Below are positions 21,001 to 32,474 of a stretch of DNA of 32,502 nt, piece by piece (the stretch's first letter is position 1; each line of letters opens with the position of its first letter). The stretch spans positions 1-32,502 of the forward strand of contig CAYOMI010000002.1 in NCBI GenBank assembly GCA_964405005.1, written 5' to 3'. The translations under genes were made by a program, and so were the position numbers. The notes under the pieces were generated by a model. The model did not search any database. It had not been told where the DNA came from and was given only the letters and a program-made list of their open reading frames with translations. This DNA comes from an uncultured Planctomycetales bacterium. GTDB taxonomy: Bacteria; Omnitrophota; Gorgyraeia; Gygaellales; Profunditerraquicolaceae.

Positions 21001-24000
21001 TGGCGATTTTGCTTCTTATCTAACTTTTCTAATTTCTTATTCAATTGGTCTATTTGAAAATTTATTTCACCAATTTTATTTTGCCGCTCAACCTCTTTTT
21101 CCTCAATATCAGAGAGATGTTTGCCTAATAAAGCAAAACGGCCATTGCCAAAGCCTAAGATGGGCGCACCTTCTTTTGTAAAGGAGGCGGGTTTTTCTAT
21201 TTTTACTTTAGGGCCTACGCCATCGTCAAAACTATCTGCAGTAAGAAAATCATACGTATAATCAATGCGACCTGTCTGTGCGTTATAACCCTTAATTCTG
21301 CGTATAAAGGAGGCATCCTCTAATTTTCCCAAGCCGCTTCTATTGGTAGTATCACGCTCACCTTTTTTATCTACTTGCACATAGTCCGTAAGTAGATTAA
21401 TTTTATTAAACTGTTCTCCTACGCCCTCAGTAATAACAAAACCGCGCGAATCAAATTCTATTTTATTAATCTTACCGGGAAGCAAAGATATAAGATTGTA
21501 CTCTTCAATTTCGCCTTTTCTCCTTGTTTGGATACCTACTGGAATATTAGTAACTTCTGTGCCTGCGGTATTATTCAGGAAAACATCCTCAAAATTTCCC
21601 GAAAGACTGACATAGGGAGAAGTTAAATTATTCAGGATGAAATCTACTTTTTGTTGATTTACCAAATGCCTGCCGCTTTCTTCTTCTACTCTAAGATTCT
21701 CTTCAAAGACTGGGCCGTGGTGTCTCTGGTAAGGTGGTGGAGAAGTATTGTTTTGGTTAAAGATCTCTTCGGCTGTAGGAATTTTTTGGTCAATAAGCTG
21801 TTTAAAAATTAAAGGATGTTCTTGATTTATCTGAATTATAGGCTTGCCATTTTCAAGGCGGCCTGTTATAGCCAGGTCTTTTATATCTTTTCCCACTAGC
21901 ACCTTGGCATTTTTTGCTGCAAAACTTAAAAACCCTGTTCCATTCGCCCAGAAATCCACGCCTTCTAAAAGCATTTTATCTGGGCTAATTGCAATCTCTC
22001 CGACCTTCTCTCCCTTCTTATTCACTACTGGAGCCTTTATCGTTCCCTTCTCATCCTTAATAAAATAAGAGCCTAAAGCCGTCCCATCCACCCAGCCGGA
22101 TTTAGCATTAGTTCCTGCCACAATACCTTTATCGCCAAAGGTAAAGGTTCCTACGCTACTTAGAGCCGGATTATCAACCCTGCCCCACTTATAATCCTTC
22201 GCCGGATTATTAGAGTCATTCGCTGCCGCAGCAATAATATAACCTCCTGTGCGCTCATGCTTATCATTCACAAAAGCATGCGTGGCCCACTCTGTCATCG
22301 CCCCTTCTGCTCTATAACTTGTGTCCTTATCAAATAAAAGCCGGTTATTTACGCCTACGCTTACCCAATTATTTTTAATTTCAGTCTCCAAGGCTGCCAC
22401 TGGTTTTAAACTGCCATCAGCTGAGCGGATTTCGTAGAGGCCTTTATTAACCAATTCACGAATAAAGAAATCTGGTTGACGGTTGGAATCAGCGTTTATT
22501 GTGGTAGGACCTGTCTCTGCGGGATTCTGCACACCCGCATTATTATTCCCATTTCCCATCTCAATCTTGGGAATAAGCTGGGTTAAATAATAATCTTTGA
22601 CTTGCCAAATCTTTCCATCCTTGTATCTTATATCAAGGTGTTCATTTATGGGTATAGCTTTTAGTTCTTTGCCTGTCTTTTGCTGGTAATAACCCCTGAC
22701 CTCTGCAGAGCCATCTCTCAAAGAATTATTATAATTACTATCTTCTTTCCACCCGCCTGTGGGTGTATAGTTAGCGCGCCAGATATCCTGCCCGGATTTT
22801 GCGCTATAAAGATACGCCAGATTAGCCACATCATTACTCACAGTCCTTAGCCACTCGGGTTTACCCCATTGCATATCGCCTTGGCTGGTGACACTGTATC
22901 GAAGCGCATTATTTTCAGATAATCCAGGAGTAACGGTAATTTCTTTAGTTTGAATATTGCGCAGAACATTGGTAGCGTCTTCAAAGCCCATTTGAACCTG
23001 GCCAGTCGGCACCTGCCAGTTACCCCAAATAGCGGGTGTATAATCCAGGCCTCTTTCTCCTGCACCTAAATAGAATTTTGCTTTGCTATCTTTCTTAATT
23101 CCTTGAATTAAAAGGGTATCCCTATTGGGATTTGTCAACTTACCCGAACCTCCTGCGCCGATTTTTTCTACTAACTGCCGGGTGTAAGCGCTATTATCAC
23201 TTCCTGCACCCATTCCAGTAGGTATATTTACGTGGCTGGGCATCTGAAAATCACCTTGGTTCTCAATTGCTAAAAGCCGACCCTTATTATCCCCAATCAG
23301 TGCTGTAATATCAGCAGTGCGACGGTTAGTATAATCTGAACCCATCCAGGATTCTGTGCTTCCATACAAACGAACCTTCGAATCTTGTCCTGTCTTTATA
23401 TTAACCGCCTTTTCTAGGCTATCCACACTCCCATCTACAAACCAACCCTGTTTAAGGGGCATTCTTGCTAATGCTTTTCCCTGATTAAGAGTTCCATAAA
23501 ATACACGGTCCACACCTTGACCGGTAATATTAACACGCGCGGTTTCACCATTGTCATAGGTGAATGATAGAGCATAAGAACGCTCTGGCCCCAATTGCGG
23601 GCCCACGCCCACAATTACGGGTTTATTTGCTGAGGAATCGGGATTAATGAAGAATATATCTTGGCCTTGACCAGCCGCAAATTTAATTTTATCCCCCACT
23701 CCTGGAGTAACGCCCATATTGGTAAACCTGATAGTACTGTTTGGCTGCGGAGTCAGGGTATAAATACTTTGCGACCACTGCGTAGCAGTTACATTCATTG
23801 ACTCATTATATTTGGAAGGAAGCAAATTTCCTGCGGGGTTAGAATATGCCTCAGGAACTACTGGGTTGCCAATCGCCCTGCCATAAGGCTGCATATCCCA
23901 GACTAGAGGGGTGGAAATGCGGGCATTATAGGAGAGGTCATTAAAATATTTCCCTACCCAGACCGCCATCTCTCCGCTTACCGGGCCGCTATAAGAAAGA

Positions 24001-25415
24001 TTATTCTTAAGGTCTGAAGCAGTATTTGTGCCCACAAAAGGGATATCCTTAAAGTAATCCTGTCTCTGTAGAGTTATTTCCTGATTTTTATAGGTAGCGC
24101 GGTTAAGTCTCTCCTGATCATAATAAGTATAAATAGGCCGGTCTATGCCTGAGGTTACTGAGGTAGTAGTGCCGGTATTTGGATTGTTATATTCGGTCTG
24201 AAAGCCCCATACCTCGCGGTAGGTTGTCTGGGGCAAACCATTAGGCCCAAAATCCGTCCAAGAAGGCCCCACTGCTGTGTTAGAGGTAATAGTATGGGTA
24301 TAGTTCATATCCTGAATGTGGGTATCACTGCGTGGGGCATCAAAGGCGCTATAATTTGTATATCCGCTGCCGTAGTTTGAGCCGTAAAAATCGCTGGAGC
24401 CATAAGAATCGCTACCATAATCATAAGAATCGCTAACCCAGTCACCCGCTCCTTTTATCTTTTTGGCTTCTGCAGGCTCCAGTAACTCTGTATTCTCATC
24501 TAATTTGCTGAATAAGCCAAAACCTGAGAATTCAGCCAGGAATTTTTCTTTAGGTAGAAATTCCTCTTTATGCTCATTGCTAAAATAGACCTTATCCTCA
24601 GTGATTTTGGTTACCAGAATATAATGGTCGCCATTGACATGGGCAATGAAAGGAGTTAAGTTAGGGGATAGTCGAAGGTCCGTGGTCGTTAGTTTAACAG
24701 GATAGAGCGTATATCCAAAAAATTCAGAGGCCTTAGAAAGGGCATATAAGGAGTTTCTGATAATTTCCGGATTTCCTTCAGGTTTAACCACCTCATTTAA
24801 GATATCCACTGTCAAGGCCATTACTGCCACATCCTGCTCCACTACCTGAATACCTTTGTAGGTTAAGAAATCATATAATGCCTTTGCTCCACAAGGCTTT
24901 CCTTTAAGCCAGTTATAGATTTCCTCAATCCGCTGGCGAGACATATTTAAGGGTTTTTCTAATTCTATAGTCAAATTATCAGAAATCTTTATGGCATTTA
25001 TCGGCTTTCCAGCAATATCAGTAAGGATATTTCTTATGGCTAAAGGGATGTCTACTTGCTGAATATTCTTTAAATAGGTAGGTGCAAATGTGCTGGCTGC
25101 GGCTGGCTTTTGCCAGAGTATGCGCCAGTCATATTCTACTGCCTGGGCCACCTGCTCAGGCAGAAAAACGCAAACCACAATAAAAGCCACAATTCTAATC
25201 CAAATTTTTCCCGCAAAACTACTTTTAAACTTGGGCGGGATCCCGCCTTTTTCTAAATTTGCCTGGCGGGAAAAACTGGAATGAAATTCTTCGGCAGGCT
25301 GTGTCTGAGGAGTGCTTTCTTTATTATTATTTTTACCTATATGAAAAAGGGGAAGAAATAGTTTCCCCCTTTCCCCCAATATTCTTATTATTTTTTCGAT
25401 GAATTCCTTCATCAT
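1..25415 (-). CDS. Giant multi-domain membrane/envelope protein. The 5' end is complete and the 3' end runs off the left window edge (at least 8,471 codons open; last full codon at 5..3).
   Basis: Codons of this minus-strand frame occupy plus positions 3n..3n+2. ATG ATG sits at 25415/25412 and is preceded by an in-frame TAA at 25433..25431. I hand-translated the frame and re-verified it base by base near 24.9k, 24.6k, 21.0k, 18.2k, 16.1k, 12.5k, 12.2k, 9.2k, 5.7k, 2.3k, 1.1k, 0.9k and 3..120. It was always the same frame, gave sensible protein sequence and met no stop. The supplied track has no minus-strand fragment in this frame anywhere in 1..25415; its three small minus ORFs are all in another frame. 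That is what is expected if the frame never closes inside the window. Most + strand track ORFs here share one frame (start = 1 mod 3) and are S/L/F-rich, typical of antisense shadows. Confidence 0.9.
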   Translation of the reverse strand, partial: MMKEFIEKIIRILGERGKLFLPLFHIGKNNNKESTPQTQPAEEFHSSFSRQANLEKGGIPPKFKSSFAGKIWIRIVAFIVVCVFLPEQVAQAVEYDWRILWQKPAAASTFAPTYLKNIQQVDIPLAIRNILTDIAGKPINAIKISDNLTIELEKPLNMSRQRIEEIYNWLKGKPCGAKALYDFLTYKGIQVVEQDVAVMALTVDILNEVVKPEGNPEIIRNSLYALSKASEFFGYTLYPVKLTTTDLRLSPNLTPFIAHVNGDHYILVTKITEDKVYFSNEHKEEFLPKEKFLAEFSGFGLFSKLDENTELLEPAEAKKIKGAGDWVSDSYDYGSDSYGSSDFYGSNYGSGYTNYSAFDAPRSDTHIQDMNYTHTITSNTAVGPSWTDFGPNGLPQTTYREVWGFQTEYNNPNTGTTTSVTSGIDRPIYTYYDQERLNRATYKNQEITLQRQDYFKDIPFVGTNTASDLKNNLSYSGPVSGEMAVWVGKYFNDLSYNARISTPLVWDMQPYGRAIGNPVVPEAYSNPAGNLLPSKYNESMNVTATQWSQSIYTLTPQPNSTIRFTNMGVTPGVGDKIKFAAGQGQDIFFINPDSSANKPVIVGVGPQLGPERSYALSFTYDNGETARVNITGQGVDRVFYGTLNQGKALARMPLKQGWFVDGSVDSLEKAVNIKTGQDSKVRLYGSTESWMGSDYTNRRTADITALIGDNKGRLLAIENQGDFQMPSHVNIPTGMGAGSDNSAYTRQLVEKIGAGGSGKLTNPNRDTLLIQGIKKDSKAKFYLGAGERGLDYTPAIWGNWQVPTGQVQMGFEDATNVLRNIQTKEITVTPGLSENNALRYSVTSQGDMQWGKPEWLRTVSNDVANLAYLYSAKSGQDIWRANYTPTGGWKEDSNYNNSLRDGSAEVRGYYQQKTGKELKAIPINEHLDIRYKDGKIWQVKDYYLTQLIPKIEMGNGNNNAGVQNPAETGPTTINADSNRQPDFFIRELVNKGLYEIRSADGSLKPVAALETEIKNNWVSVGVNNRLLFDKDTSYRAEGAMTEWATHAFVNDKHERTGGYIIAAAANDSNNPAKDYKWGRVDNPALSSVGTFTFGDKGIVAGTNAKSGWVDGTALGSYFIKDEKGTIKAPVVNKKGEKVGEIAISPDKMLLEGVDFWANGTGFLSFAAKNAKVLVGKDIKDLAITGRLENGKPIIQINQEHPLIFKQLIDQKIPTAEEIFNQNNTSPPPYQRHHGPVFEENLRVEEESGRHLVNQQKVDFILNNLTSPYVSLSGNFEDVFLNNTAGTEVTNIPVGIQTRRKGEIEEYNLISLLPGKINKIEFDSRGFVITEGVGEQFNKINLLTDYVQVDKKGERDTTNRSGLGKLEDASFIRRIKGYNAQTGRIDYTYDFLTADSFDDGVGPKVKIEKPASFTKEGAPILGFGNGRFALLGKHLSDIEEKEVERQNKIGEINFQIDQLNKKLEKLDKKQNRQVIEQQINTLKKELSGLGYEPSKTDKPARADQTISHKINIGVSGNTLTGDNQRGIFSHQGTFSTQATLDGYYANAALMENGKEITSFERIALGLQNIVDETGNRIGEGRVYVLPYGEEHKKGEKARVLEFNSHEQLFTLGAGEQFEAVNMLVNYPGVREDGRIKPINKQNRKGTEIQEMAAKLSGVSFVREITGYNKESGVEYKYKKDSVSAEGFDNGRENGRIEKHIRGLVSDDGKYVGLDFGTARIDLFAKRTLDYDTPKDKKAPEDRHNKKDDKPLFNVKDRVSEIRRTKERILTADNQIAIFSHQGTFSASAGLDGYYGNITFTKESVAPYFEIAIAKQMGTAGPTYLKPYGMNNKKPVEIKFDANERPYNKGVGERAEGVNHLITDKDGNIIGKLFNISYEFEVLGKDEKGTIQYRYKPGSFSALKYFDAEKGKWLDKIPAVIDKELGLPLLDINGTQKIFFHQGAFNNQSSFLDLVMGKETKQESELRPGQKWIGYDREGDELLFWVDANKDVHSALLRDRNGKKRSSDEQYGIIARKTLSPYARFKLKTLRENPRGWKSWFCWGGFNLTDTYDPSEFKLEEKIVEGQKVTMLHMKGKGYLLEPQDIALIDYNKDKKNTNAGVALTKAISRLFGVNADAEPIEGTGVLALFATKKNQQLVAVLLNGGFQPYNISPLSKNASEKEKKIEQGISVSPPKAKGKTEIIIPEYITAGGQRTEGHWLSASKYKINWQEGQSSPSITLLRGGYRYDRQYISGNTQNVKDTTTVTFEHRARSEAQVVAINGNEVEHREQIVGGSPNDQKLYFKNGSYVLFLGQRGIVLSGADIGFYSHLSTDSKKWLTDLYNQLFERRDPKSQYIPIENLIVRLGVSGGLTWDNFGQQMQKLNISQELKEKFILDLIYNNTNLHIGGINPDKDSKKGLNCVGISLLTCELMEKIGTNKYSIVYMTRDDNPIGHVSLHNGKDIIELAIRGSGDSSLEKRYKEAGWDLSKVWVIGKDAEGRVVREHLLQMLAGKSKIVCGFQNKDVKKVEMAKRSLEYGRITEAAQLMEGLTDRSVPGADAMYHNLGISYLLGKDNQKAKEYLSIASNLGDNSMLSILGILRQIENNPNAKINVRRNPDGSIGIQVVVSNKSYTAKAAYREVFTTDPLSKGVNHFTGGLEIKEDENNVLGYYYKGQPVQIVHYANDGRVFFKYSKSGDNDKFYKLSPESNEAIELDRECVELATEDLMKARHGENQLLRGQLQQRNVSLEEVLAAADLIMQSKNSSNKKDQRLYDIAKSTSIWIGETQKDLQDYINRSWWITRKLVPIEKALYAPNLNLALMVTGAEIEFPFRLAGTAFNSARGIVESPGWALEKIIIYACMPSYWRHKEVFHEQNKALGEEIWNMWRGDWHPFTWAKEQREGYLKAAGWTGNAFEILAELLLLRKVGSSLNLSSKANWLLSPATKGSAALSGLAFAGGELLVNKTLNMIWNQEPLWGWDVNKKYLPQTLITFGTIFGLHMFNIHLNNRAAAKGLLQKTADGRFIPTENIAPNLKPAAIKFTTYKGIVNNAILFGNVDMATNNVLHAPELNNASFGDTVKFNIQSFTGLDFLSLGGGIKDVFRGQAGRGLVKIVQGLKGESWMAGAKGGAFFGGIIGFAGGVANYTDFAKSKFWTENRFGKILNFSFNPYYGVVDDRLIINRWTWAAQRTFTLATWTATAVAARLAIDLDSFKTNEWKEAAMEAATWGAYARFLASSGKLSEFLRGNRNLTGKFSDYSGLIRNVGVIATGAGINIGRDFGIGYLEKKTGRSFGAEPLVYEDGNLISGNGLIPGKASPGQIVVSGIRGAVYAKLVQFALSKAGNKYFNNVGKNVKHYGTLANEEVKLAEGPKQRLVHQFVAEPLKGTVKWPFISLVMDKAKPVWDTTIGAVEKTVDHVFYINMDQPVWGWKFADKWYPFRKEEQDPITRQIHYRPLTAGELFSIDRAQALQYIAAAKHGKFMGVLLRIAMNTPRELAPETGYQSLSVKLGASRGVATKIVSAADWAFAKNKWLSALAPGKLGKLAAIMNKNSIVAEIDSLFYISGYVTGVARILDSIKRAGLYTDVLTNRVYNNFTNRENFEKGMANYKAVAPSSKEENAIGWVRLAIKTGNILPEHLELLLVHEGRGPQGPGEINRGATLKEFQRFNKYSSIAEISRKEAGIQEKIEREFPSPSKRKIILSGEENAPPEGEVTIYGSSEKPISKVYRGEKGIRDAFNSGDKEAAKKAIISRAEILLPEQTSKQKAIQKHLEIFLFGKGRATQQAEDALENSGASQETMQQLKALRDKANRLMPLMEEYAQLRGFNAGLIERNPKLLTSKSLKVVTETETGSETVEFKVGEDKLSARIDIGELKRGQGAERIAEVLIERQRSVGGLREVKIGYKQYEGSDLVSESEREIKSGAETEQGKIRKINIGDQIEVELTGELRSRYESLVIDFATRRDNYSKALGKPISKTEKDYYQARYDYWQRYLEGAGQEELAKLHSKADSLHKGYVEGYFARLKTQTSNPDAEATRKMDRVRDYYLQTGKDIPDTLDINDPVLISTIARFALFKANSMKEIQKLKKQFKETPANGQEEEIITLKVKGGYRYEFKRSEIEKIINDPNSGLEFQLQHKLRTRVFGELVDNGKIGEAQQLLEKICNTKDGESVKGEDLLVDATLKKAAKGLIAQISTLQKAQEVGLINNEGKLNVEFNPNGTMKPKSGILNANLDNFIREFNQSITSFEGRSDQAIRADLAKEAKGIIGKGKYAGDYYFDLFKVGLKTYAVEAKLRFGEDGKIKEPEKTTEGLQMLCGLFKEKNPLLRSGGGKTLPGMIELVIHALWGAEGVDKEGKINFRKNMTLVVRDGEQVSKAKYKEIFDTFGLGLVPIGNGEANLLEALFKDPKAVILIDDVSFGHLHNILRGSFREVLNTQDVIRFDEFHLHFASDNAYITAEGKIPLSTDIIRTTKEAWDKIKQLIHQGRIEQLSFQKVKENQRPGFYYDALMEKVVINAKAREIFERELHLSPEVTQAVLRARFYPEGQNGRYKVINEGKDKGGILVVERGRVEPDKVMSDKYLLAALAAKEAHRVDPTKLYTSPANSQATLTEILKFSPHTSVLGFSGTLDSVELMLKFQIGRGIEKISETKFDGTSVISHTSDSKKLAGDIVQKILEGRRNGLILVRDSQLYQELQKQLSKKSQIELKEININSKPQDIDTLSKEWINVQGLDNGKIRVILSNEQGATGVDYQGNINLVIADGQNWRLTRLLQGIHRNNRKGEDAERWVYFQAPSTDNMPKYLLNEINARINSRYKGEKVIEIKGRSGDVEGSLTNAERLDVEGLLTNAKRLEVVEIHKAISNQLRDAAYSTFIIEKIKNMLVTAEAAEDHKSFRALGEILKDAIDYKNKPTWDDLLVSQYPDSAEKQIERILKSVATQAKGYMGLILRSSDINNPLVKLNAKETLTDIDVAVKGYNNITADSQRTINGVSSFREIVAAGKALKGNLFTEYIQANNLRTTDAKAARVINYLNTQREQAGLSKLSESQGIAITRLLDTVILSNGTRGSPELLRHIVPFAPSLKPVLEPVLEKLAPDLSSGQSLSPVSIQGITQIYTTINDSLFTSSASQTPREQRLADADFVTSLIYPEYTFNHLASVVGAYDRIRLLPDIRQNILDVQDILKPQGATTSQSQSQSGLLRLEDKQILVQDFIDNPYYYLGGVTRTGEKWWNPVAIIKEHRLRNRTSFLEQSQSFVLNNNRLYYWTEARPTRNLLVKAASMDEAKLEEQIKKLFSPIQKMEGEAKQAQERTMALAFSLRNFSWRIKEEKKYREVYNRLLEGLLSATDKQTVEFYSDQLRSLDKRISLGYDEFLKAREANFGNKKVPFVDVVETLRKSKTDTSGTAWIELWREKLGLSGYRQPGKWITFTPFGMGLGGLTTRGLGWLTWIPYSIAATATGFLIHFAQKDPDSYVNHRLNFGRANLDATILDTIHKKKQESPDFVLGLKEADEIAEEIVKKFAKRGIKRDDVIKTIVTFSNPFIAKDTLDIRAIRKLSDKRVEKYLSFLSEEEQKTYRYLRSLPTLVDEDYAHKREELCGKARSVALGDMLKENLEKTLQVSDKPEKHEDCVTRMREALQELSEKQDDHFKKIAEDWLKDRKNRKAKSLFEGDATTYVGGELKKQAKQIFKAIEAAEKHFGFDKSQPGIATTLDDNQKAEVREDFYYTIKKVLEEKKSAEEKVKEIEALNNKVRRDLLVHLTAKQELRKTLNTEGKDMVSGFGREGITEKFINTQLEKIKDERVKAELRSALKETLKKLDTLVHRWAEAGITRDEWVSEEIKQEDTAVKDELNKIEQQLKNLAQAINNIQGQSLDYSQNIKQLNEILKNLKRQEAETVQVRQEDLNAVSAVIDAVIRSSAVTHRQRIKDLVVLYKGLIKDDKNEIRSVEEALKELDKLEEDAVLTNSRNDALGRIPVYLANLKSLLATPDNDKDIQLMRLQAAKDILAGEHTRLAREVLQKMQEELKKIEKQVKDAQSVIEIRNKGTQKRVDELSKEEKVALFEYWRKSFQPDLAKFDTQNVNASLQTAIKQIFGIDKTITEQNYEEQFNKFLFLMDLGSKGEVRFTRTQRIWDIGYEELKHRYEKILSQEKVSFYNRHAEESKGKVILYAQKDSLREFKDKLQRNELKAEKEKRDFLKEIGLENLSKRLLLMNAREVEKVLQDISSQQDIPYLVDSLNETLGIDRKEAIDVILAYALEEKLHKVNNIPKLLEKLHKKTYTYRVKTDDIYKEFYAKDSQPLLIMKANGDFVTLLFARPDMWVVLDEKGTVQTVQPLPEKQFYLFNSTKLPQDIFGRGIGSWGRHLIKSKEMQKLSTTEIPISDKEEFTQKVLNDSRLNKVISRYAPYLLSKEEVRSDKTKRIEKAKELIAQAKVSQALQEAADNIASLNQVATRLLGLMQQAGLDVEQINGLLLDKGVVDVGDNFRLVYLNGRIEAFYAEKEGEVITLRREKVAEGLPLSARNGNEIYIFREAVEAQAQAKVEEFASSDYAGKFGLRLTSSWKPSFASISFAVIGAGLLVAAIFIGGIGGIAAGIGGAIAAGIGSLYTGRVVFKFNKSVFSQKDIEDYLKAKEILRQQRENNKVTFESTNYEERVLDLILMGDGARTEQVRKLAFYHFLFDSDNGAIKDVEYLKIIKGKIGLDAWDGEEKTLRKAIKKVNFTGAFNTGVDVKTEDTLTVTHPVDYYATKLQQGLREEDKDKRNNVLAEALAAFLDGRVKDISTVSQQHNPLPALSQIVLNNELSAGVRQQAMDIIAKIADNNPSLALSILETIVNAPSKKEQEDIKLDSFHMQAMATIENINLSKVKEGKEREEFGKNLVQALVNIALRNSQPEMEIKAVQKLQKLLDYVNRTTITQIVFLLKEENAALRNEAAGLFKVWAEKNKVEISDVQKALNASEIKQIIDCLEGRKNDITVSYRKLKRIGDKKGKLSESEISSFINQFGPETAREFMKTKLSTDDKADKIIALQVLASLVESDLSAIESYLNDPDKDIKIWVNIALLTVYAKYPQKADKEKINSAWGIIIEEGNLALCTILTEKFNHLLDILVEHNYKTVINEINVKADEIIHLISSLRDNRDAQELISALEKTISFLVENKKVIPTQNMIDSLINSLHKEMKLDRDKLEVSFAKIVFRIISEFVKAEPNLKAEPNLKVEVNVSEFKNPEIRTLLLDFLRETKQPSQLGTILDNIKRPNLTQLEEIERLLGVLENGGNIDAVKGQLLNLLNKGTYGKVNNEQYQEKIISIRRKAAQLLAEAGQDLDTYLNDEDVEIRFWANVVSKAQNREAAEQVALEMLEEGSLDKQGKLALLAMVENRKIKVDDEVVDAFTELLEDSDEEVVKKALEVFEVEVWKKAATASIKNGQVVDEQEKIFDLEQLTPVQRKVILERINNLKGIKDNYIVRWSDLQLEDEEGKTHPAGLVVYKINNTSGKVIYVSQETSLKEGEISILVGETWQENGSIYVTESYLDEQAKVIEDAQKNGEYKENDPLNKKMTAFYHQLLAKAHNGEDKEVVKEFEAQRLLAETYFANNGIRNGKLAVNLTAAVNASKYQEVVLWLALAAILKEATQGNNQALSFFDRLAAAITNNGNGAAKIENSEELAKWVKDTLLQQSHTELSSKIKQIAPDFGVSVPSAANSIFMMFNAKPVTSLDEKGRLIIEPKFHTESSQFRLWNLKHEYWHTQLNQLYPYLSKEVKEAVAVALAFDNLGEITDEHLQRLANGLEFNNNLTEEKFLSNIFDLLAQMAESIASRQYILDNKETLITQARAIVGEHQTSRNIPAERQQPAPLPETPTNIPAPTGSSIGQIHQGFGLGLGLSQITDNVLSVKELIKIIGGAHRTYHPGIRVATAISAIAGRGLTQARKFAKSLNRKSNAVVHTDSTAQALVGKEQVVAEGKAGNLTKESLDAQGVRTLSERTEQGSISASNTSGIYRTPEQKREDLQRAATQNLPKNNKPTRIPASLKVDSQETILETEKTQTGEELREAKKEHDYLLFISIPTSTSTTPEFGGTEAFNLEFTPSAPDTTSTPNLEQSTFEFNPGPTTPNNPIMPEGGFGGDGGSGGKGPGTPNNPIMPEGGFGGNGGSGFIKAILPTVIVLVAAFIIFALPEFASCGEVIKQGNRIYILVQKGDTWGHIVEMLRIGLNALNLLTTGKSLLAGKFWGDNGAVYNSYRAIQADNPRFVDINKIYIGQKIDITNLNVPESLVGAKTGTVTDTGITQTPSPIDTHRLATPTPSHEWVNFFKNPYNITLVVLGAILLVEILVIVKQIVKHYRRTNKISQDLPIKDRRMRKQVNRMKQEARGLDRKVREETEKITHKVRAFMRKVATPRAVTPKSKKKEIEVEIPGKRVVRDTQEKAETARRIARIKEELLDLNAKVDKGETPADINKRIEAIIKEIDNIANIYAEHRALYDEMMDLLNGLIKKTGYQPDVPKDASSQGLPR
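3..520 (-). other. Basic, K/R/E-rich helical (coiled-coil-like) tail of the giant protein; continues beyond the window
   Basis: Hand translation gives ...KHYRRTNKISQDLPIKDRRMRKQVNRMKQEARGLDRKVREETEKITHKVRAFMRK...RIARIKEELLDLNAKVDKGE...IYAEHRALYDEMMDLLNGLIKKTGYQPDVPKDASSQGLPR. Confidence 0.5.
528..590 (-). other. Predicted transmembrane helix (C-terminal side of the LysM-like module)
   Basis: Hydrophobic run NITLVVLGAILLVEILVIVKQIV, followed by the basic stretch KHYRR. Confidence 0.6.
745..965 (-). other. LysM-like peptidoglycan-binding module with an internal insertion
   Basis: Verified codon by codon: YILVQKGDTWGHIVEMLRIGL...AVYNSYRAIQADNPRFVDINKIYIGQKIDI. The LysM hallmarks are present (Y-x-V-x-x-GDT-hydrophobic-x-x-I and N-x-x-x-I-x-x-GQ-x-I-x-I), but the module is about 30 aa longer than a canonical LysM. 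Confidence 0.5.
1005..1070 (-). other. Predicted transmembrane helix (N-terminal side of the LysM-like module)
   Basis: Hydrophobic run KAILPTVIVLVAAFIIFALPEF, verified in frame. Confidence 0.6.
1074..1214 (-). repeat. In-frame 72-nt (24-aa) tandem duplication in a Pro/Gly-rich linker
   Basis: ccaaaaccaccctcaggcattat... recurs with a 72-nt period (starting at 1093 and 1165). The protein copies are GPTTPNNPIMPEGGFGGDGGSGGK and GPGTPNNPIMPEGGFGGNGGSG. A T/S/P-rich stretch lies upstream (TSTSTTPEFGGTEAFNLEFTPSAPDTTSTPNLEQSTFEFNP). Confidence 0.85.
2289..2303 (-). other. HExxH motif (HEYWH), a candidate zincin metallopeptidase site
   Basis: Verified codons give RLWNLKHEYWHTQLN. This is a motif-only call; I did not identify a third zinc ligand. 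Confidence 0.2.
3290..5270 (-). other. HEAT/ARM-like alpha-solenoid repeat region
   Basis: Recurring L-x-D-x-D-x-x-[IV]-[RK]-x-x-A-like units: LNDPDKDIKIWVNIALLTVY (~4340..4390), LNDEDVEIRFWANVVSKAQ (~3500..3550), LEDSDEEVVKKALEVFE, LKEENAALRNEAAGLFKVW and ELSAGVRQQAMDIIAKIADNNP. The whole region is helical in composition. Confidence 0.45.
3872..3907 (-). repeat. Perfect in-frame 18-nt tandem duplication (KAEPNL x2)
   Basis: ttaagttaggttctgcct at 3872..3889 is repeated exactly at 3890..3907. Confidence 0.95.
5690..5830 (-). other. Glycine-zipper transmembrane segment(s), probably a hairpin of two helices
   Basis: Verified sequence: SFASISFAVIGAGLLVAAIFIGGIGGIAAGIGGAIAAGIGSLY. Confidence 0.6.
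7000..8750 (-). other. Coiled-coil-rich K/E/L/Q helical region
   Basis: Examples: IKQEDTAVKDELNKIEQQLKNLAQAINNIQGQSLDYSQNIKQLNEILKNLKRQEAETVQVRQEDL and LAREVLQKMQEELKKIEKQVKDAQSVIEIRN. The heptad-like spacing was judged by eye only. Confidence 0.45.
9130..9240 (-). other. Predicted transmembrane hairpin
   Basis: Verified sequence: PGKWITFTPFGMGLGGLTTRGLGWLTWIPYSIAATATGFLIHF. Confidence 0.55.
10941..11012 (-). repeat. In-frame 36-nt tandem duplication (12 aa)
   Basis: taatctcttggcattggtaagcaaaccttctacatc (10941..10976) versus taatctctcggcattagtaagcgaaccttctacatc (10977..11012), with 33/36 identical. The protein copies are DVEGSLTNAERL and DVEGLLTNAKRL. Confidence 0.9.
11150..12520 (-). other. 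SecA-DEAD-like / SF2 helicase-like P-loop ATPase domain
   Basis: Motif I is LLRSGGGKTLPG (GGGKT = 12495..12509, verified). Motif II is VIRFDEFH (12159..12176, verified). A motif III-like LGFSGTL lies at ~11611..11637, a motif V-like ILSNEQGATGVDY at ~11241..11275 and a motif VI-like RLLQGIHRNNRKGEDAERWVYF at ~11155..11200. The order, spacing and flanks (GLGLVPIG..., ILIDDVSFGHLHNILR) parallel the SecA motor (TGEGKTL / DEVDSILIDEA / GMTGTA / TNMAGRGTDI / QLRGRAGRQGDPG). Confidence 0.65.
15650..16950 (-). other. Gly/Trp-rich hydrophobic block with several predicted membrane helices
   Basis: Hydrophobic runs: GWALEKIIIYACM, SAALSGLAFAGGELLV, TLITFGTIFGLHMFNI, GGAFFGGIIGFAGGVANY (verified at 16080..16139), WTWAAQRTFTLATWTATAVAARLAI and NVGVIATGAGINIG. 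Confidence 0.5.
17700..17905 (-). other. TPR-like repeat pair
   Basis: MAKRSLEYGRITEAAQLMEGLTDRSVPGADAMYHNLGISYLLGKDNQKAKEYLSIASNLGDNS. Confidence 0.4.
18090..18240 (-). other. Cys...His core resembling a transglutaminase-like or papain-fold cysteine peptidase
   Basis: Verified sequence: KKGLNCVGISLLTCELMEKIGTNKYSIVYMTRDDNPIGHVSLHNGKDIIEL (Cys codon 18216..18218, His codon 18117..18119, 33 aa apart). It resembles the G-x-C-x-x-F-A...GIPAR-x-V-x-G...HAW-x-E pattern, but the third catalytic residue is not clear. Confidence 0.3.
19560..21600 (-). repeat. Three divergent tandem protein modules (~160-250 aa each) plus the start of a fourth
   Basis: Recurrent blocks: GIFSHQGTFSTQATLDGYY (~20790..20850), IAIFSHQGTFSASAGLDGYY (~20035..20100) and KIFFHQGAFNNQSSFLD (~19560..19615). 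Also GVGEQFNKINLLTDY / GAGEQFEAVNMLVNY / GVGERAEGVNHLITD, and SFIRRIKGYNAQTGRIDYTYD...SFDDG / SFVREITGYNKESGVEYKYK...GFDNG / YEFEVLGKDEKGTIQYRYK...YFDAEKG. DNA similarity remains locally (agagaaggttccctgatgagagaaaat versus agagaatgttccctggtgggagaagat). A coiled coil (QIDQLNKKLEKLDKKQNRQ, 20960..21130) separates modules 1 and 2. Confidence 0.7.
24395..24440 (-). repeat. 21-nt in-frame duplication in an S/Y/G/D low-complexity linker
   Basis: cataagaatcgcta occurs at 24401..24414 and again at 24422..24435. The protein is DWVSDSYDYGSDSYGSSDFYGSNYGSGY. Confidence 0.7.
24500..24930 (-). other. Peptidase C39-like (papain-fold, bacteriocin-processing type) cysteine peptidase domain
   Basis: Verified sequences: LKGKPCGAKALYDFLTYKGIQV (Cys codon 24891..24893), ...FIAHVNGDHYILVTKI (His codon 24624..24626) and TEDKVYFSNEHKEEFLPKEKFLAEFSGFGL. 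These match the C39 layout C-G-x-x-A-L...G, H-[FY]-hydrophobic-V-L, and D/N...hydrophobic...F...W/F-x-G. Confidence 0.6.
25150..25210 (-). other. N-terminal signal-anchor / transmembrane helix of the giant protein
   Basis: KIWIRIVAFIVVCVFLPEQVAQAV lies about 70 aa from the start, after a polar basic N-terminus. Confidence 0.6.
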
Positions 25416-25452
25416 TTTATAAACTATTTCTTAAACTCTTTAATAACCTTCT

Positions 25453-25508
25453 AAAACAAAAACCGGATTGTCAAATACTAACTTTTGCGTCGGTATTCGG
25501 CAACCCGG
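25453..25508 (-). terminator. Intrinsic-terminator (attenuator) hairpin plus U-tract in the giant-gene leader; overlaps the 3' part of the riboswitch aptamer
   Basis: In the RNA, CCGGGUUGCCGAAUAC pairs with GUAUUUGACAAUCCGG over 16 positions (1 C-A mismatch, 2 G-U) with a 14-nt loop, followed by UUUUUGUUUU (plus 25453..25462). The ATG lies about 37 nt downstream. Confidence 0.7.
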
Positions 25509-25587
25509 CTATCCTGTTACAATAAATTTTATTAGGACCCGCGGCTTTGCGCCCCCATCTCACAATGGGTTTGCCCTTTTCGCTACC
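25492..25587 (-). promoter_or_regulatory. c-di-GMP-I (GEMM-I) riboswitch aptamer, copy A (giant-gene leader)
   Basis: RNA: GGUAGCGAAAAGGGCAAACCCAUUGUGAGAUGGGGGCGCAAAGCCGCGGGUCCUAAUAAAAUUUAUUGUAACAGGAUAGCCGGGUUGCCGAAUACC. It contains the GEMM-I blocks AGGGCAAACC, a GNRA-capped hairpin (CCCAUU-GUGA-GAUGGG), GGCGCAAAGCC, a second hairpin with a CCUAA receptor-like element, and AGCCGGGUUGCCGA. GGUA...UACC can close P1. Confidence 0.8.
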
Positions 25588-25605
25588 TTCCTAATTTGCA
25601 GTAAA

Positions 25606-25634
25606 AATATAACATTAAAATACTCTTTTGTCAA
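25606..25634 (-). promoter_or_regulatory. Sigma70-like promoter of the giant gene with an extended -10
   Basis: Minus strand reads TTGACA (25634..25629), a 17-nt spacer ending in TGT, then TATATT (25611..25606). The predicted TSS near 25599 sits just upstream of the aptamer. Confidence 0.65.
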
Positions 25635-25971: not shown

Positions 25972-28900
25972 TTAATTTAACATCTTAAAGGACTCTTCCA
26001 TAATTTTATCGCGTTTCCCCTCTATTTCCTCTGCCGGAATACCGGTAGAATCTGAACCAAATCCTGGCTTTAAATCTTTCACCTCAGCAGGCAAAAGTCC
26101 CTCAAACCCACTCGGCTCAGACAACTGCTTGGTGCGCACATACACTGCCTGAAGCTCATTATCTCTGGGGTCTATCACAAAATTTAGACCATTGCTGGAG
26201 AACTGTTCTGAATTATCTAAGGCCTTAATTAAAGAAAAGTTGGTAACTTCTGTTTTTTTGGTGTAATCAATTGCGTAATTAATGAGATTTTTGTCATAAA
26301 TATAAAATTGGGAACGTTCTATGCGCGGCTCTCTTTGCAGATTATTATTGAGAGCATAACCCATCTCCATTGACCAGGCAGGCAAGGGAAGCAAATTCAG
26401 ACCTTCTTGGGTGGGTAATAGCCGGTAATTGTAAACACGCAACAGTTCTACCTGTGATAAATCCCGATTCATCTGCTCGGCAACTTCCTGAGCCTTTTCG
26501 ACTAAAACATCCCTCTGCGGCATTAAGTCAAAGATATCAGAAATAGGAATAGGCAGGCGGTTGCCTTCCATTTCTTTAAATTTAGCAAATTTCTCTAATT
26601 TCTCCTCAGGAGTAGCCCTATTAAATGTTTCTTTTTTCTCCTCAGGAGTAGCCCCATTAAATGTTTCCTTAAATCTTTCTACATATCCGTTAACATTAGG
26701 ATTTGTGTAAACCAGATGCACTACTGGTTCTAAAAGACCTGTAGAGGCGCTTTCCTCTGGGCTTAAAGAGAAGTTGTTCTGCCCTAGGCATCTATTTTCT
26801 AATACTTTATTAAATAAATCTGCAATAAGCGCGTTTTTGCTGTCATACCATTTTCCAAATAAATTTTCTTCCTTCCCGGAATCTAATGTGTATTTATTCT
26901 CGAGAGGAATACCAAACTCAAGAGGAATACCAAAATTCTTTGTATCTAAGAATTGCTCCTTTAGCAAACTTGAATCTAATACCTCATAATTAAAACCACC
27001 TCCTGTAGAATCCAAAGATGATTGGAGTTTTTCGAGGTCTTTATAATTTTTATAATCCTTTTGCAGGAATTCGATATATTCTTTAATCTCTGCTTCGCTA
27101 ATAAACTTCTTAAACTTCTCAGGTAAAGTGAATTCTGTATTATTTCTAACTGCCTCTCGCACAAGAGATTTCAATTCACGCACTACAGCTGAAGATAACT
27201 TCCCCGCATCAATATTATAGTATCTTTCTGATATAAGATATGATCCAGAATTTATATCCGCATAAATCCAGCGCGCAGCCGGACCTGTATAAGGGCTGGC
27301 ATACTTACCTGTGTCATAAATATTAAGGTCATAAGTAATATTGGGGCCGAAACTAATTGGGGCCGGAGTTTTAATTTCTTGAGTTTTGGGAGGAGTAATA
27401 ATTTCTTTTGGCACCTTGATAGTTTCTTGTACTGCTTTCTCATATTCTTCTTTGTTATAAATTGTAAACTTAACATAACGATCCGCTTCTCTCTCTTTAT
27501 GTGTAGTGTAGGTTCCATCGGGATGGAATTTCGGAACTGTAGCCTGAGATTTACCCAGACTTTTTGTTTTAATCCGATCTCCTGGCACGCCCATTTCTGC
27601 CAAAACATCTTTAATCGCATCAGCGCGCCTCTGTCCTAATTCGAGATTATATTTTTCGCTGCCCCAAACATCACAAGCGCCCACCACTTCAAGTTCCTTA
27701 TCAGGATTTTGTTCTAAATATTCTTTGATTGGTTCAAGCTCTTTTTCAAGTTTAGTGTGGGCATCCTTACGCACAACAGATTTATTAAAATCAAAATAGG
27801 AATCTACGAGTAGTTTATCCTCTTTAACTGCGGGTATGTTATATTCTCTAATTCCTTCTTCAAAGACGGTTTCTTTTCTTTCTGGTTCAATTATTTTTGT
27901 TTCGGATTTCATTGGCCACTGCCGCGGCATAGTTATCTCGCTATAGTCTCTGGTAACACTAAGAATCGGACCAAAAGAACCGTAGTAATAATTTGTGGAT
28001 TTATCCAGTTTAACTGTACCCCAGTCTCCGGCTGTCCCTTCAGGTCCAGGATAATACTCTTTCCCAAAATACTCTGTCTTTATTCTCCTTCCTGAATCAT
28101 CCACTTCTGTGCGGCTTAATAAACCATAATCTAGGTGATAAAAAATAACCGGTAGTTGAGCAACAAATGTTTTTAATTTCTCAAGCTCCTCTGGTCCCTC
28201 TTCGGGAAGCCAGGAAACTAATTTTGCTAACTTTAACCTTTCTTCGCCGCCTTCTTTAAATGCCTCAGCGCGCAACTTATACACATTTGCGTGAGTAGAA
28301 ATACTAAGCAGATTTTTCATTGTATTTTTAAAATCTTTCTCATCTAACTCATTTAATTGTCCTTCGGTTCTAACAATAAAATCAACCAGTTGCTGGGAAT
28401 TCCAGTTAGCATTCAGATCTCTGAGAGTCTTGATTGTCTCTTTAAAAGCCGCAACTTCTACATACAAACAGACTGTATTAATTTCTTCTTCCGTTAGTTG
28501 TCTCTTGTCTAATTCAGGAATGAGTTTCTCCACAAGGTCTTTCTGGATCTTGCTCAAATCAGCACTGTGTTTTAAGTTATTTAAGATATCTAATAAATTC
28601 TTCTTATTTTCTAATACTTCCTTCTTACTTTTCACAATTCGTTCAACTTCTTCATCTGTAAAGCTGTCTCGGGCAATTAAAAATACTGGCTTAGCCGGGT
28701 CATAAGGTCTGTCTGCTTTTGCAAGACGAAAGTTCCCATACACTTCAATATCCTGGGGTATCCCTGCTATACTGGGATAATAAGTGCCTTCTATACCTGC
28801 AACATTTTTCTTTAATGCCGCCAAACGTTTTTGTTTAGTTACCTCATCTACGTCTTTTTGTACAGTGATAAAGGCCTCCAATCTCTTTATTGTATCCCCA

Positions 28901-31900
28901 TCTAATTTTTTCAATCTACCTGTTAATTGCCTGTCTACACGGTAATCTACAATCCCGCCAATTATAATATCATTTAACTGGATACTGCCTTTTTCTAAAT
29001 AAGCCCGGCTCCCTAAAGATATAGTTGAGGTGAACGCCCCCACTATAGGAATAATGGAAAATAACCTCTGTAGCGGAGAATTTATTAAAGCCTGTAAATT
29101 GGGCATTTCTATTTTTTCTAGCCGGTCTTCTTTTTTAGATAAAGACTCTTTTATCGTGGGAATAGTGTGTAATAACTCTTTGATCTCTTCCAGGTCGCTT
29201 ATCGTCCCTTTACCGCTTGCTCTGGCAAGAAAATCCAATGCCTCGCCATGCTCTTCTGCCAATTCTTTATACCCCTCAAGAGTAGCATATTTCCCATCCT
29301 TAATCGCTTCTTCTAAGGCGCGTAACTTTTTCAGTTTATTAGCTAAATCCTCAGCCTCTGCCTTCTTAATTTTCAGTTCACGTGCTAATTGTTCTCCTTG
29401 CAGGATAAAGGCAGCATAGGAGCGATATTCTAAAGGTAGATAAGGATTCATAATTGCATAACTGAGGGAATTGGCAAAATCCCGGTTAGCCACCTCAGCC
29501 ATCCGACCCGCTACAATATTACCCAATGCCTGTATGGGGTTGCTTCCCCGCATCATACTATCTATGTAAGAAATGAAGAAGTCATAATAATCCCAGGGCT
29601 TTCTGATAAATGAATCTGCTCCTGAGGATAAATCTTCACCAAAAGGATAGGTGTTGGTAGCCGCGGCAATCAAATTATTATTGAAATTTTGCAAAACACC
29701 CCTGATAAAACGGCCAGCGTCTGAAATTCCCTTTAATCTGGCAGCCAAGTAAGGGTCTTCTGACTTAAGCTGAAGATAGGCAATATGTACCGGTGAATCA
29801 GCAGGAAGAATTAATTTATATATTTCTTTTTTGCTCAACTGCTCTTTTCTACTAAGCGGTTCACCCAAAGTTATTTTCTGTCCCTGAGAATCAGTTAAAA
29901 TAATTTTCCCTGGTTCGCCTTGCACAGGTATGCCGGCTATAGAAACTATACCTCCTTCTTCTTTCTCCAACAATATGTAGGTTTTGCCATCTTTTGTAAA
30001 CAACGCTGTCTTCCCATCATTTGTTTCTCCTTTTTCATAATCTAAAGCCAGGGTGACTGAGTCAATGAGAATAACATTATCTTTTCTTGCCTCTACCTTT
30101 CCCTCTTTTACCTCTACCTCGTTTAACTTTACAAATGTTACTTTTATGGCGCCAGGGTCTTTTCTAAAGAATGTATCTATTAATCCTGAAACCACACTGC
30201 TGGCAAGTAAATGCCCAAATTCAGAAACCACATCCTGCGAGATATCATTCTTTTTGCAGTAATAGCCCCAGAGTACCCTAAATACTGCTATGCCTACCTC
30301 TTCCAATGCCTTTTTAGCCATATATTGGCCTAAGGATAAGCCCTGTTTGTTCTCCCAGGGATTGCGTGGCTGGAAGTTACCCTTCTCGTCTTTTAGCCCT
30401 ACTCTGCCTGCATAGTAGCTATTTAAAGTAGTTAAGTTCATCACAAACCCCGCAGCTATGCCTGAGACCATATCTGCAATCGCCATCTTCCATAAACTCT
30501 CAAAAACTGGCTCAGATTCGCCGCTATGGTCGGTTTTATGACCCAGGGCTTTTAAAATGAGAATTTTAGTGAGGCTATAGACAATCGGGCCTAAGCCTAA
30601 GTGCCGCATTGCCTCCAGTCCTACTGCAAAGGCCGAACGATTGGCAGTCATCAGGTTCCCGTGGAAATCATACCATAAACCACCGCCAGTCAGGCTTATT
30701 AAATCCTGAAGCGCGTCTGCTTTTGCGGTGTAATTTAGTATCTTTTCTTTTACTGTGTTGAAAATTTCTTGCGTAAGAACAAACTTGCCCTTTCCTCCTA
30801 CTTCTACGATGTTAATATCCTGGGCTCTTTTGCCTAACTTTAAGGCTACTTCAAAGCTTACTCTTACTACCTGTTCTTTACCTTCCTCTCCCGTAACTTT
30901 AATTTCTACCTCAGCATTGCTAAGATCCGTTGCCGTGTAGGATTTACCATTTACATTAATAATTTCCTCTTTTCCTAATGAATCCAACTTTTGAATTGCC
31001 TTGCCGTCTTGCTTACGCGCAAAACCGCCTCCTTTAGTCAAATAAAGACCAAATGCCTTTGCTACAGTCGCGCGCAGCAGACCAGAAAAGAAAGCATTAG
31101 TAAAAGTCCCTGCCAGGCTTCCTGCTACTGCGGCTATTGCCTCATCCCAGCCGGCATCTTCTAATTTTTGCTTTACATACTCAGAGATAATGAGTTTAAA
31201 TGTGCCGCTGATTAAATCCGTGACTAACTGTAATGTTGCCAGACCGTATGATCCCTTCATTCCATAATAAATATAAGGGTTGAAACCTCCCTCTTTAGTA
31301 ATAAGGGCTTTAAAAGCCTGGCGCCAGGATGTGGTCTTTGGCAAATCTCCTTTTAGTCTTCCCACATTAAAGAAATTCTTAATTTTAGCGAGCAGTGATG
31401 TTGTCTGTTTTGCTGCCTGCTGGGGAACTTGCTTTACAGTCTCTTTGGCGCCTACCTTGGCAACTTCTTTTATACTCTCTTTAGGCAACTCTTTAGCTAC
31501 TCCGGCTTTGCCGCCTTTGAATAAATTCAGGATACTGCGCCAGATAGTTTTTATCCCAGTCTTAATCGTCTCAAATATTTTGAATATTCCTTTGACAATC
31601 CATTTTAGCGCATCAACAATGGCTTTGACAATTGACTGGATTACAGAGGTGGCTGCTGCTGAGGTTGTTGAAGCTACCACTGTTCCTGTTGTTGCACCAA
31701 CTGTTGCTCCTGTTGCGCCTGTTGTTGCGCCACCAGTTGTTGCGCCTGCTGTCCCTGCTGTTGCGCCACCTGCAGTTGATCCACCAGTTGTTGCGCCTGC
31801 TTCTGTGCCTCCTGCAGCTGCTCCTCCTGAAGTCCCTCCAGCGCCTCCGCCTGCAAATGCTCCGGCAGCAAAACCCGCAATTGCGCCTGCAACCACTCCG

Positions 31901-32241: not shown

Positions 32242-32277
32242 TTGAAAACTCTTTATTAAACTTTTAATTAACTCTTT

Positions 32278-32318
32278 AAAACAAAAGCCGGATTGCTTTT
32301 TGCTTCGGCAACCCGGCT
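32278..32318 (-). terminator. Intrinsic-terminator (attenuator) hairpin plus U-tract in the leader of the 2,089-aa gene; overlaps the aptamer 3' block
   Basis: In the RNA, AGCCGGGUUGC pairs with GCAAUCCGGCU (11 bp including one G-U) around the loop CGAAGCAAAAA, followed by UUUUGUUUU (plus 32278..32286). The ATG lies about 36 nt downstream. Confidence 0.7.
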
Positions 32319-32426
32319 ATCTTTTTAAACGCCGTCGAGAAAATAAATAAAAACCGAATTTTTCTGCGTCTACAAGACCCGTGGCTTTGCGCCCCTACCT
32401 CGCGGTAGGTTTACCTTTTCGTGCGC
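32302..32426 (-). promoter_or_regulatory. c-di-GMP-I (GEMM-I) riboswitch aptamer, copy B, with an enlarged second hairpin
   Basis: RNA: GCGCACGAAAAGGUAAACCUACCGCGAGGUAGGGGCGCAAAGCCACGGGUCUUGUAGACGCAGAAAAAUUCGGUUUUUAUUUAUUUUCUCGACGGCGUUUAAAAAGAUAGCCGGGUUGCCGAAGC. It has the same block order as copy A, with a GNRA (GCGA) loop on a fully compensated stem (CCUACC/GGUAGG versus CCCAUU/GAUGGG). The base of the second hairpin also covaries (GUCUU/AAGAU versus GUCCU/AGGAU). Confidence 0.7.
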
Positions 32427-32446
32427 TTTTATCTTGTAACACTCAA

Positions 32447-32474
32447 ATTATAGCATATATCTTGCCTCTATCAA
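32447..32474 (-). promoter_or_regulatory. Sigma70-like promoter of the 2,089-aa gene with an extended -10
   Basis: Minus strand reads TTGATA (32474..32469), a 16-nt spacer ending in TGC, then TATAAT (32452..32447). The predicted TSS is near 32440. Confidence 0.6.

Follow-up and report, generated by a model that had tools for sequence, protein, structure and literature searches.

A c-di-GMP-responsive riboswitch of the transcriptional ON type very probably gates the entry of RNA polymerase into a giant Omnitrophota gene in the window, the whole stretch of 32,502 nucleotides analysed here. Giant bacterial genes, which span tens of kilobases and are found mostly in uncultivated Omnitrophota, are a recent curiosity, and to my knowledge neither the timing nor the mode of their expression has been described. 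With a conserved c-di-GMP ON riboswitch, these genes would gain a first concrete regulatory input, one that would fit the hints from PilZ and GGDEF domains described below. The switch should be accessible in vitro with synthetic RNA or DNA, with no need to culture the organism. The coordinates of the riboswitch, the giant ORF, and the features around them are collected in Table 1.

Table 1. Features of the window, with coordinates counted from its first nucleotide.
Feature	Coordinates	Strand	Basis or content
Giant ORF, ATG 25415	3..25415	-	at least 8471 codons without a stop; runs off the window
Conserved leader element	25333..25379	-	UUGGGGGAAAGGGGGAAA, CU-rich tract, CAUAUAGGUAA
A/U-rich leader GGUUAUUAAAGAGUUUAAGAAAUAGUUUAUAAA, terminator to first ATG	25416..25452	-	visual comparison of leaders
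U-tract UUUUUGUUUU	25453..25462	-	immediately 3′ of the terminator stem
Intrinsic terminator hairpin, 16 pairs	25463..25509	-	MFE structure and conservation
c-di-GMP-I aptamer	25495..25584	-	cmscan match and covariation in 15 sequences
Sigma-70-type promoter	25606..25634	-	11/12 consensus matches, extended -10 TG
Neighbouring upstream gene, 2089 aa	25972..32241	-	ORF; OmpA-family domain (PF00691, 52.9 bits)
Predicted terminator of the second riboswitch	32278..32317	-	hairpin contained in the MFE structure
Second c-di-GMP-I aptamer, canonical G20/A47/C92	32303..32423	-	cmscan 61.6 bits, E 2.1e-12

The leader RNA quoted in the original prediction was found letter for letter on the minus strand at 25453..25600. 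When the whole window was scanned with cmscan against Rfam 15 at the gathering thresholds, it was found that only two sites match, both on the minus strand and both to the c-di-GMP-I clan (CL00126). The site in front of the giant ORF matches over the full model length at 25584..25495 (71.4 bits, E 3.2e-15), and its P1 helix can be extended to 25587..25492 by GGUA/UACC. In the window copy, P1a is a hairpin with a GUGA loop of the GNRA type. A GNRA loop is found on P1a in 15/15 leaders, with a putative receptor in P2 (CCUAA...), while the distal loop of P2 is variable in length (21 nt in the window copy and 8-59 nt among the 15 leaders measured). In a loop-trimmed alignment of the 15 leaders, 98.1% of the cells are paired according to the Rfam structure of 21 pairs, compared with 29-47% in a control in which the partners were slid in the same leaders. 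Both partners have changed in nine of the 21 pairs, covariation is seen in all six pairs of P1a, and these values were reached by none of 500 shuffles; the P2 helix is nearly invariant in this alignment and thus uninformative for covariation. The aptamer is a real feature, far beyond chance. With the clan match, a canonical pocket, and covariation in orthologous leaders, the call of a GEMM-I (c-di-GMP-I) aptamer in the original prediction was borne out. The window copy resembles Vc2 of Vibrio cholerae, the prototype of RF01051, in its three-helix architecture (P1, a GNRA-capped hairpin, and a second hairpin) and in its G20/A47/C92 pocket, and the two have the blocks AGGGCAAACC, GCGCAAAGCC, and AGCCGGGUUGCCGA in common. 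It differs in the distal loop of the second hairpin, which is lineage-specific, and in an A-rich J1/2, while the host phylum Omnitrophota and the giant ORF as a target are new contexts for this riboswitch class.

The promoter consists of a -35 element TTGACA (25634..25629), a 17-nt spacer with the TG, and a -10 element TATATT (25611..25606). Judging from the promoter spacing, transcription would start near position 25599, which leaves about 12 nt ahead of the aptamer. The 5′ arm of the terminator, GCCGGGUUGCCGAAUAC (25509..25493), is composed of the P2 3′ strand, the C92-containing junction, and the P1 3′ strand of the aptamer, and it pairs with the 3′ arm GUAUUUGACAAUCCGG (25478..25463) with one C·A mismatch. 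It had been proposed that these two arms pair as an alternative to the aptamer and are followed by the U-tract; this pairing is in fact the minimum-free-energy (MFE) structure of the leader. For the segment 25520..25445, the MFE structure is the terminator hairpin (-28.1 kcal/mol, z = -5.1), and none of 200 shuffled sequences was as stable. A simple terminator scanner with a loop limit of 8 nt missed this hairpin because its loop is longer. Among 17 leaders, the terminator helix is paired in 86.5% of the cells, compared with at most 41% when the partners were slid, and four of its pairs show compensatory changes. All 17 leaders examined have a T-rich run after the stem, and in 17/17 the 5′ arm of the terminator coincides with the 3′ strands of the aptamer. 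The A/U-rich leader that follows is similar, on visual comparison, in the orthologues (CUUAUUAAGAAGUUUUACAAAGAGUUU) and in the leader of the second riboswitch.

Since the 5′ arm of the terminator is made of the 3′ strands of P2 and P1, the aptamer and the terminator are mutually exclusive. Thus, the ON logic that had been suggested gains support from the shared strands, the MFE fold, and the covariation, while the ligand-dependent read-through itself is a prediction of this model. For the full leader, the terminator fold was calculated at -49.8 kcal/mol and the fold constrained to the Rfam pairs of the aptamer at -29.3 kcal/mol, both values comprising secondary structure only, with no tertiary or ligand energy. 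Since the terminator fold is far more stable than the aptamer fold, the default state would be termination (OFF). The ligand would then have to trap the aptamer co-transcriptionally, which would place the ON switch under kinetic control. Switching would require that the ligand be captured fast, during a transcription window of about 30 nt, which is plausible.

The proposed sequence of events is as follows. Transcription would begin around 25599 from the strong sigma-70 promoter, and the aptamer (25587..25492) would be transcribed first. Bound c-di-GMP would lock P1 and P2, so that their 3′ strands become unavailable to the downstream GUAUUUGACAAUCCGG; no terminator would form, and the polymerase would enter the giant ORF. 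In the ligand-free state, the more stable hairpin (25509..25463) with its U-tract would form, and transcription would stop near 25453. A high level of c-di-GMP would thus commit the cell to a giant surface or predation-related protein. This suggests that the cell takes on the cost of the giant mRNA and protein only when c-di-GMP is high, presumably during attachment or predation. I infer which ligand is bound, that control is kinetic and co-transcriptional, and what the switch means for the cell. ON-type c-di-GMP-I riboswitches in front of large surface protein genes are an established theme, for example Bc2 of Bacillus thuringiensis, an experimentally validated ON switch that precedes cap, a gene for a collagen adhesion protein (PMC4933901). 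By default, transcription terminates in the 5′ UTR of cap, and c-di-GMP promotes the formation of an anti-terminator, which results in read-through (PMC4933901). The window switch resembles Bc2 in its predicted ON logic by anti-termination, although it is a predicted switch while Bc2 has been validated. Its target of at least 8471 codons is roughly an order of magnitude larger than that of Bc2, its host is an uncultivated, putatively predatory, ultra-small bacterium, and it has a further conserved leader element after the terminator.

The giant ORF is open from ATG 25415 to position 3 of the window, and such a run of 8471 stop-free codons is impossible by chance at 40% GC. Thus, the statement of the original prediction that the riboswitch precedes a gene of more than 25 kb holds. 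A Peptidase_C39-like domain (PF03412) was found at amino acids 222-303 (nucleotides 24507..24752; 31.9 bits, E 1.3e-7), and the rest of the giant ORF inside the window gave no further Pfam match. The first 500 residues match 18 loci in species-representative genomes, nearly all of them Candidatus Omnitrophota MAGs, at 48-69% identity. With its Omnitrophota origin, its very long ORF, and a Peptidase_C39 domain near the N-terminus, the giant protein, whose N-terminal part is visible in the window, fits the giant-gene family of Omnitrophota. The C-terminal features of this family, a SecA-like domain and transmembrane segments, would fall beyond the end of the window. Is the riboswitch common in front of its homologues? 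A riboswitch of clan CL00126 scoring at or above the gathering threshold (GA) lies upstream in 14 of the 18 homologous loci. In 13 of them, the riboswitch ends at most about 270 nt from the start of the ORF, and in the remaining one (L009) it lies about 1.3 kb upstream. Another locus (L017) has kept the terminator and P2 and has lost the 5′ half of the aptamer, and no riboswitch was found at three of the 18 loci. Since the riboswitch is absent from three loci and truncated in one, this control is not obligatory.

A 21-nt string spanning the 3′ end of the aptamer and the 5′ arm of the terminator (AGCCGGGTTGCCGAATACCGA) was found in 20 genome contigs, all of which are Omnitrophota or likely mislabelled. 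Twelve of these contigs were new, and all twelve have a riboswitch at or above GA; in 11 of the 12, a homologue of the same N-terminus follows the riboswitch, while in the twelfth (L149) the riboswitch precedes a different large membrane protein. In total, the riboswitch was found upstream of the family with the peptidase C39-like N-terminus in 25 species-level genomes besides the window. Another candidate, GCAAAGCCACGGRTC...AGCCGGG, was rejected as a lineage marker; a broad genome scan gave more than 120 matches across many phyla, and the string is a P2 segment shared by GEMM-I riboswitches in general. Within the window, no enzyme that makes or hydrolyses c-di-GMP is seen to be encoded.

The Omnitrophota giant genes ('Archaeovorins' and their relatives), with N-terminal C39 domains, were described by West-Roberts et al. 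in 2023 (bioRxiv 10.1101/2023.11.21.568195). PilZ genes were found downstream of the giant genes, some of which also contain GGDEF domains (10.1101/2023.11.21.568195), and these reports provide an independent tie between the giant genes and c-di-GMP. Like the published genes, the window gene has an ORF of more than 25 kb and encodes a C39 peptidase-like domain close to the N-terminus, in an N-terminal region that is poor in other domains. It differs in its surroundings; the upstream neighbour is a gene for an OmpA-domain protein with its own riboswitch, not a secretion-system locus as described for the published genes, and the window ends 260 nt upstream of this neighbour. The word 'riboswitch' occurs neither in that preprint nor in a 2026 Omnitrophota preprint (10.64898/2026.06.07.730766). 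In the literature searched, no paper was found that connects riboswitches with the giant genes of Omnitrophota, and none that combines Omnitrophota with a c-di-GMP riboswitch. Thus, while the riboswitch class is known, that literature appears to contain no report of a systematic link between it and giant genes.

The assignment of the aptamer within its clan needs to be considered, since the top-scoring model at both window copies is not RF01051 but RF03167 (c-di-GMP-I-GGC, GA 59), which also ranks first in 19 of 26 orthologous matches. The output of cmscan shows only the best clan member at each site, so the RF01051 score itself is not displayed. In each of three scans, the lower clan matches that were left out at the gathering threshold equal the RF03167-best matches in number (2/2, 11/11, and 8/8), and from these counts I infer that RF01051 (GA 35) was also passed at each of these sites. 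The match to RF01051 anticipated in the original prediction is therefore upheld as a clan match above the gathering threshold, with the RF01051 pass itself deduced from the counts, while the best model proved to be RF03167. In the printed consensus sequences, the sole highly conserved difference between the two models is GACGCGAAgCc in RF03167 versus GACGCAAAgCc in RF01051. The differing column corresponds to Vc2 A47, an adenine that is intercalated between both guanines of c-di-GMP, and the 'GGC' of the variant name presumably denotes the nucleotides at positions 20/47/92 (G20/G47/C92). From the Vc2 crystal structures, G20/A47/C92 in Vc2 numbering are assumed to be the ligand-contacting nucleotides. 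The window copy has GCGCAAAGCC at the A47 block, and its cmscan alignment to RF03167 has a mismatch at exactly that column, with a G in the consensus and an A in the window. It also has G20, which precedes the G-C closing pair, and C92, which is found in UUGCCGA with the GC in the junction before the P1 3′ strand. These pocket positions correspond to G12, A39, and C70 of the leader alignment, where they are invariant or nearly so.

What, then, is the ligand? That the aptamer is a genuine member of the c-di-GMP-I-GGC family sensing a ligand other than c-di-GMP is highly improbable. RF03167 scores best here (71.4 bits) and in most of the orthologous matches, its backbone sequence and structure are nearly identical to those of the window copy, and by score alone the site would take the RF03167 label, as it would in automated Rfam annotation. 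However, the G that defines RF03167 at the Vc2-A47 equivalent (GCGAA versus GCAAA) is absent from the window copy, the second copy, and all 26 leaders parsed, every one of which has an A. The failed test of the pocket nucleotide outweighs the score, and a canonical c-di-GMP-I riboswitch, as originally proposed, is the better call. Clan competition is the best explanation of the RF03167 label, which would then be an artefact: a narrower and more information-rich model that otherwise resembles these sequences takes the higher score. By the same competition, Rfam will give the 'GGC' label to these riboswitches despite their canonical pocket. The c-di-GMP-I-GGC variant is not discussed in the NAR 2017 paper. 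Since the pocket is the canonical G20/A47/C92, c-di-GMP is the predicted ligand. In the Vc2 structures, G20 pairs with a guanine of c-di-GMP, and an A20 is the hallmark of cGAMP selectivity. The fold and the Rfam clan are common to the riboswitches for 3′3′-cGAMP (c-AMP-GMP, GEMM-Ib) of Geobacter and relatives, and an A20 change, common in cGAMP-responsive variants (PMC9481103), is found in two orthologous leaders (L012 and L154). Nevertheless, the window copy lacks this hallmark and has G20, which is also found in 22 of the other 24 leaders parsed, and it is very unlikely that the window riboswitch responds to cGAMP or to both dinucleotides. One further leader (L013) has a U at position 92. 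Together with the two A20 leaders, this indicates that the ligand specificity is not uniform across the family.

The aptamer might also be real while the terminator is not its main output, with control being mainly translational or post-transcriptional through a downstream element or a uORF, or with the terminator being constitutive and bypassed by read-through or antitermination factors. The terminator is indeed followed, ahead of the giant ORF, by a conserved element with SD-like and stop-codon-containing motifs, the aptamer fold is less stable than the terminator by about 20 kcal/mol, and L017 keeps its terminator despite the loss of the 5′ half of the aptamer. In spite of these points, such a scheme is improbable; the 5′ arm of the terminator is precisely the 3′ strands of P2 and P1 in every one of the 17 leaders, and compensatory changes preserve both alternative pairings, which is the signature of a coupled switch. 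Moreover, the second riboswitch of the window has the same design without the extra element. These observations favour a transcriptional ON switch.

The extra conserved element has the form UUGGGGGAAAGGGGGAAACUAUUUCUUCCCCUUUUUCAUAUAGGUAA in the window (25379..25333). In the orthologues, it consists of UUGGGGUAAGGGGGAAA, a CU-rich tract, and AUAUAGGUAA, with a constant spacing of 28-30 nt. It lies within the first 90 nt of the annotated giant ORF and was absent from the original prediction. In most orthologues, the element is located in the 5′ UTR or in a short uORF, and the ATG of the giant ORF follows 4-17 nt after AUAGGUAA. In the window, AUAGGUAA is not followed by a start codon; ATG 25415 opens the frame, and the element is in frame with the giant ORF. 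Thus, leader ORF and giant ORF are fused in the window. In 24 Omnitrophota loci, the composite motif of the element occurs once per locus, and it does not occur at all in 850 kb of sequence from other phyla. The uORFs starting with ATG read the G-motif in two frames, as GVRGK or WGKGE, and such a uORF is missing from two loci. For these reasons, a peptide-coding explanation was rejected, and the element is conserved at the nucleotide level.

No Rfam family matches the region 25250..25450, even at E values up to 10. The consensus structure calculated for the element with RNAalifold is weak (-0.14 kcal/mol); the individual sequences form hairpins between the G-rich and CU-rich tracts of -5 to -17 kcal/mol (-16.9 kcal/mol for the window) in shifting registers. 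A stable conserved RNA structure is thus a weak explanation of the element. The scanner flagged a second intrinsic terminator at 25369..25351, which is unlikely because the U-run belongs to the stem. An internal sigma-70 promoter was also rejected, as neither the hexamers nor their spacing match one. The element may serve in translational coupling or SD masking, in ribosome pausing, or as an ops-like site for the loading of an elongation factor. It is tempting but still doubtful that the giant genes of Omnitrophota have a two-stage leader, in which the riboswitch would decide if RNA polymerase embarks on a transcript 25 kb to more than 100 kb long and the new cis element would then couple a short uORF, ribosome loading, or an elongation or antitermination factor to the giant ORF. 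The element might then have a role analogous to that of ops/RfaH or of the LoaP leaders of long operons. If so, it would represent a new class of signal that regulates extremely long genes specifically. The element may also point to mechanisms for the processive expression of such genes.

The second c-di-GMP-I riboswitch, which was not noticed in the original prediction, has the same layout as the first one except for the extra conserved element. Its promoter, TTGATA-16-TATAAT at 32474..32447, has 11/12 consensus matches plus the TG. Its terminator is composed of GCCGGGUUGC (32317..32308), a loop, and GCAAUCCGGC (32296..32287), followed by UUUUGUUUU (32286..32278). It is predicted from this arrangement that the second riboswitch controls the gene for the 2089-aa protein, which has an N-terminal hydrophobic region and an OmpA-family domain at amino acids 1482-1567. 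No relatives of the N-terminus of this protein were found. When the protein was compared with the 18 loci by tblastn, only L001 gave a match, which is C-terminal, and a contig search added one 6.7-kb contig without extra context. Between the end of the 2089-aa gene at 25972 and the promoter of the giant gene, no terminator was detected by the scanner with its 8-nt loop limit. Thus, read-through transcripts from the upstream gene, which may extend into the giant gene, would also meet the first riboswitch.

It was found that the window carries a second unit, complete with promoter, c-di-GMP-I aptamer and terminator, which lies upstream of the gene for a 2089-aa OmpA-domain protein (32241..25972). 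Thus, each of two adjoining large genes has its own predicted c-di-GMP ON switch. In the Rfam clan competition, RF03167 (c-di-GMP-I-GGC) wins at both window aptamers and at 19 of the 26 orthologous matches. However, the position that defines this variant family is A, not G, in both window aptamers and in the orthologues labelled RF03167. Judged from these nucleotides, automated annotation will label these riboswitches wrongly as RF03167.

Positions of leader features in the window and in loci from other genomes (L-numbers)
Feature	Location	Strand	Remark
First window aptamer	25495..25584	minus	
Second unit (promoter, aptamer, terminator)	32278..32474	minus	complete
Second window aptamer	32303..32423	minus	61.6 bits; G20/A47/C92, canonical
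A/U-rich motif, consensus CUUAUUAAGAAGUUUUACAAAGAGUUU	25416..25452 and 32242..32277	minus	3′ of the terminator
UUGGGGUAAGGGGGAAA/CU-rich tract/AUAUAGGUAA element	25333..25379	minus	between riboswitch terminator and giant ORF
Orthologous copies of this element (examples)	L004 2884-2927; L006 2990-3032		
Aptamer with terminator of the window type	L149 1176-1285	minus	RF01051, 40.2 bits
Riboswitch	L009 1596-1686		giant-gene homologue ORF at about 2950
Leaders with A at position 20	L012 842-963; L154 4396-4495		
Leader with U at position 92	L013 1370-1481		
Leader lacking the aptamer 5′ half	L017 2797-2871		P2 and terminator kept

The gene downstream of the L149 riboswitch, whose aptamer has an extra hairpin inserted 3′ of P1a, encodes a different large membrane protein and is not a C39-type giant gene. 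Thus, the riboswitch regulon of Omnitrophota is wider than the C39-type giant genes. In three genomes, the riboswitch and the giant-gene homologue are separated by a gap of about 1.2-1.4 kb (L142 and L155, both at about +1.3 kb, and L009). In L142 and L155, an ORF of about 390 aa lies inside this gap, and these two loci probably have a two-gene unit under riboswitch control.

Some orthologous leaders vary in the aptamer itself. An A at pocket position 20, as found in two leaders, is a c-AMP-GMP-like signature. The L013 terminator is a perfect 17-bp stem, formed via changes that compensate for the U at position 92.

Three further motifs were found in the leaders. The element composed of UUGGGGUAAGGGGGAAA, a CU-rich tract and AUAUAGGUAA is conserved and has a fixed spacing of 28-30 nt. 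Each of 24 Omnitrophota loci has a single copy, while none was found in 850 kb from other phyla and no Rfam family matches it. Its consensus structure is weak, and the uORFs across it use two different frames. The 9-mer AAGCCACGG lies directly 5′ of P1 in at least seven orthologous leaders (L003, L004, L006, L007, L008, L016, and L148). It is identical to the 5′ strand of P2, of which it is a repeat, and possibly serves as an alternative pairing partner or an extended P1. The repeat is absent immediately 5′ of the aptamer in the window. In several of these loci, AAGCCACGG recurs in the early coding region, where it encodes KPRE. The A/U-rich motif is common to both window leaders and the orthologous leaders; the first ORF may have its ribosome-binding region here.

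I found the Omnitrophota-type leader and giant-gene N-terminus also on contigs deposited under other names, namely Planctomycetales or Planctomycetia (L004/L153, L006/L140, L007, L152, and L154) and Ignavibacteriae (L151). It is likely that these MAG contigs were misbinned or given a wrong taxonomic label.
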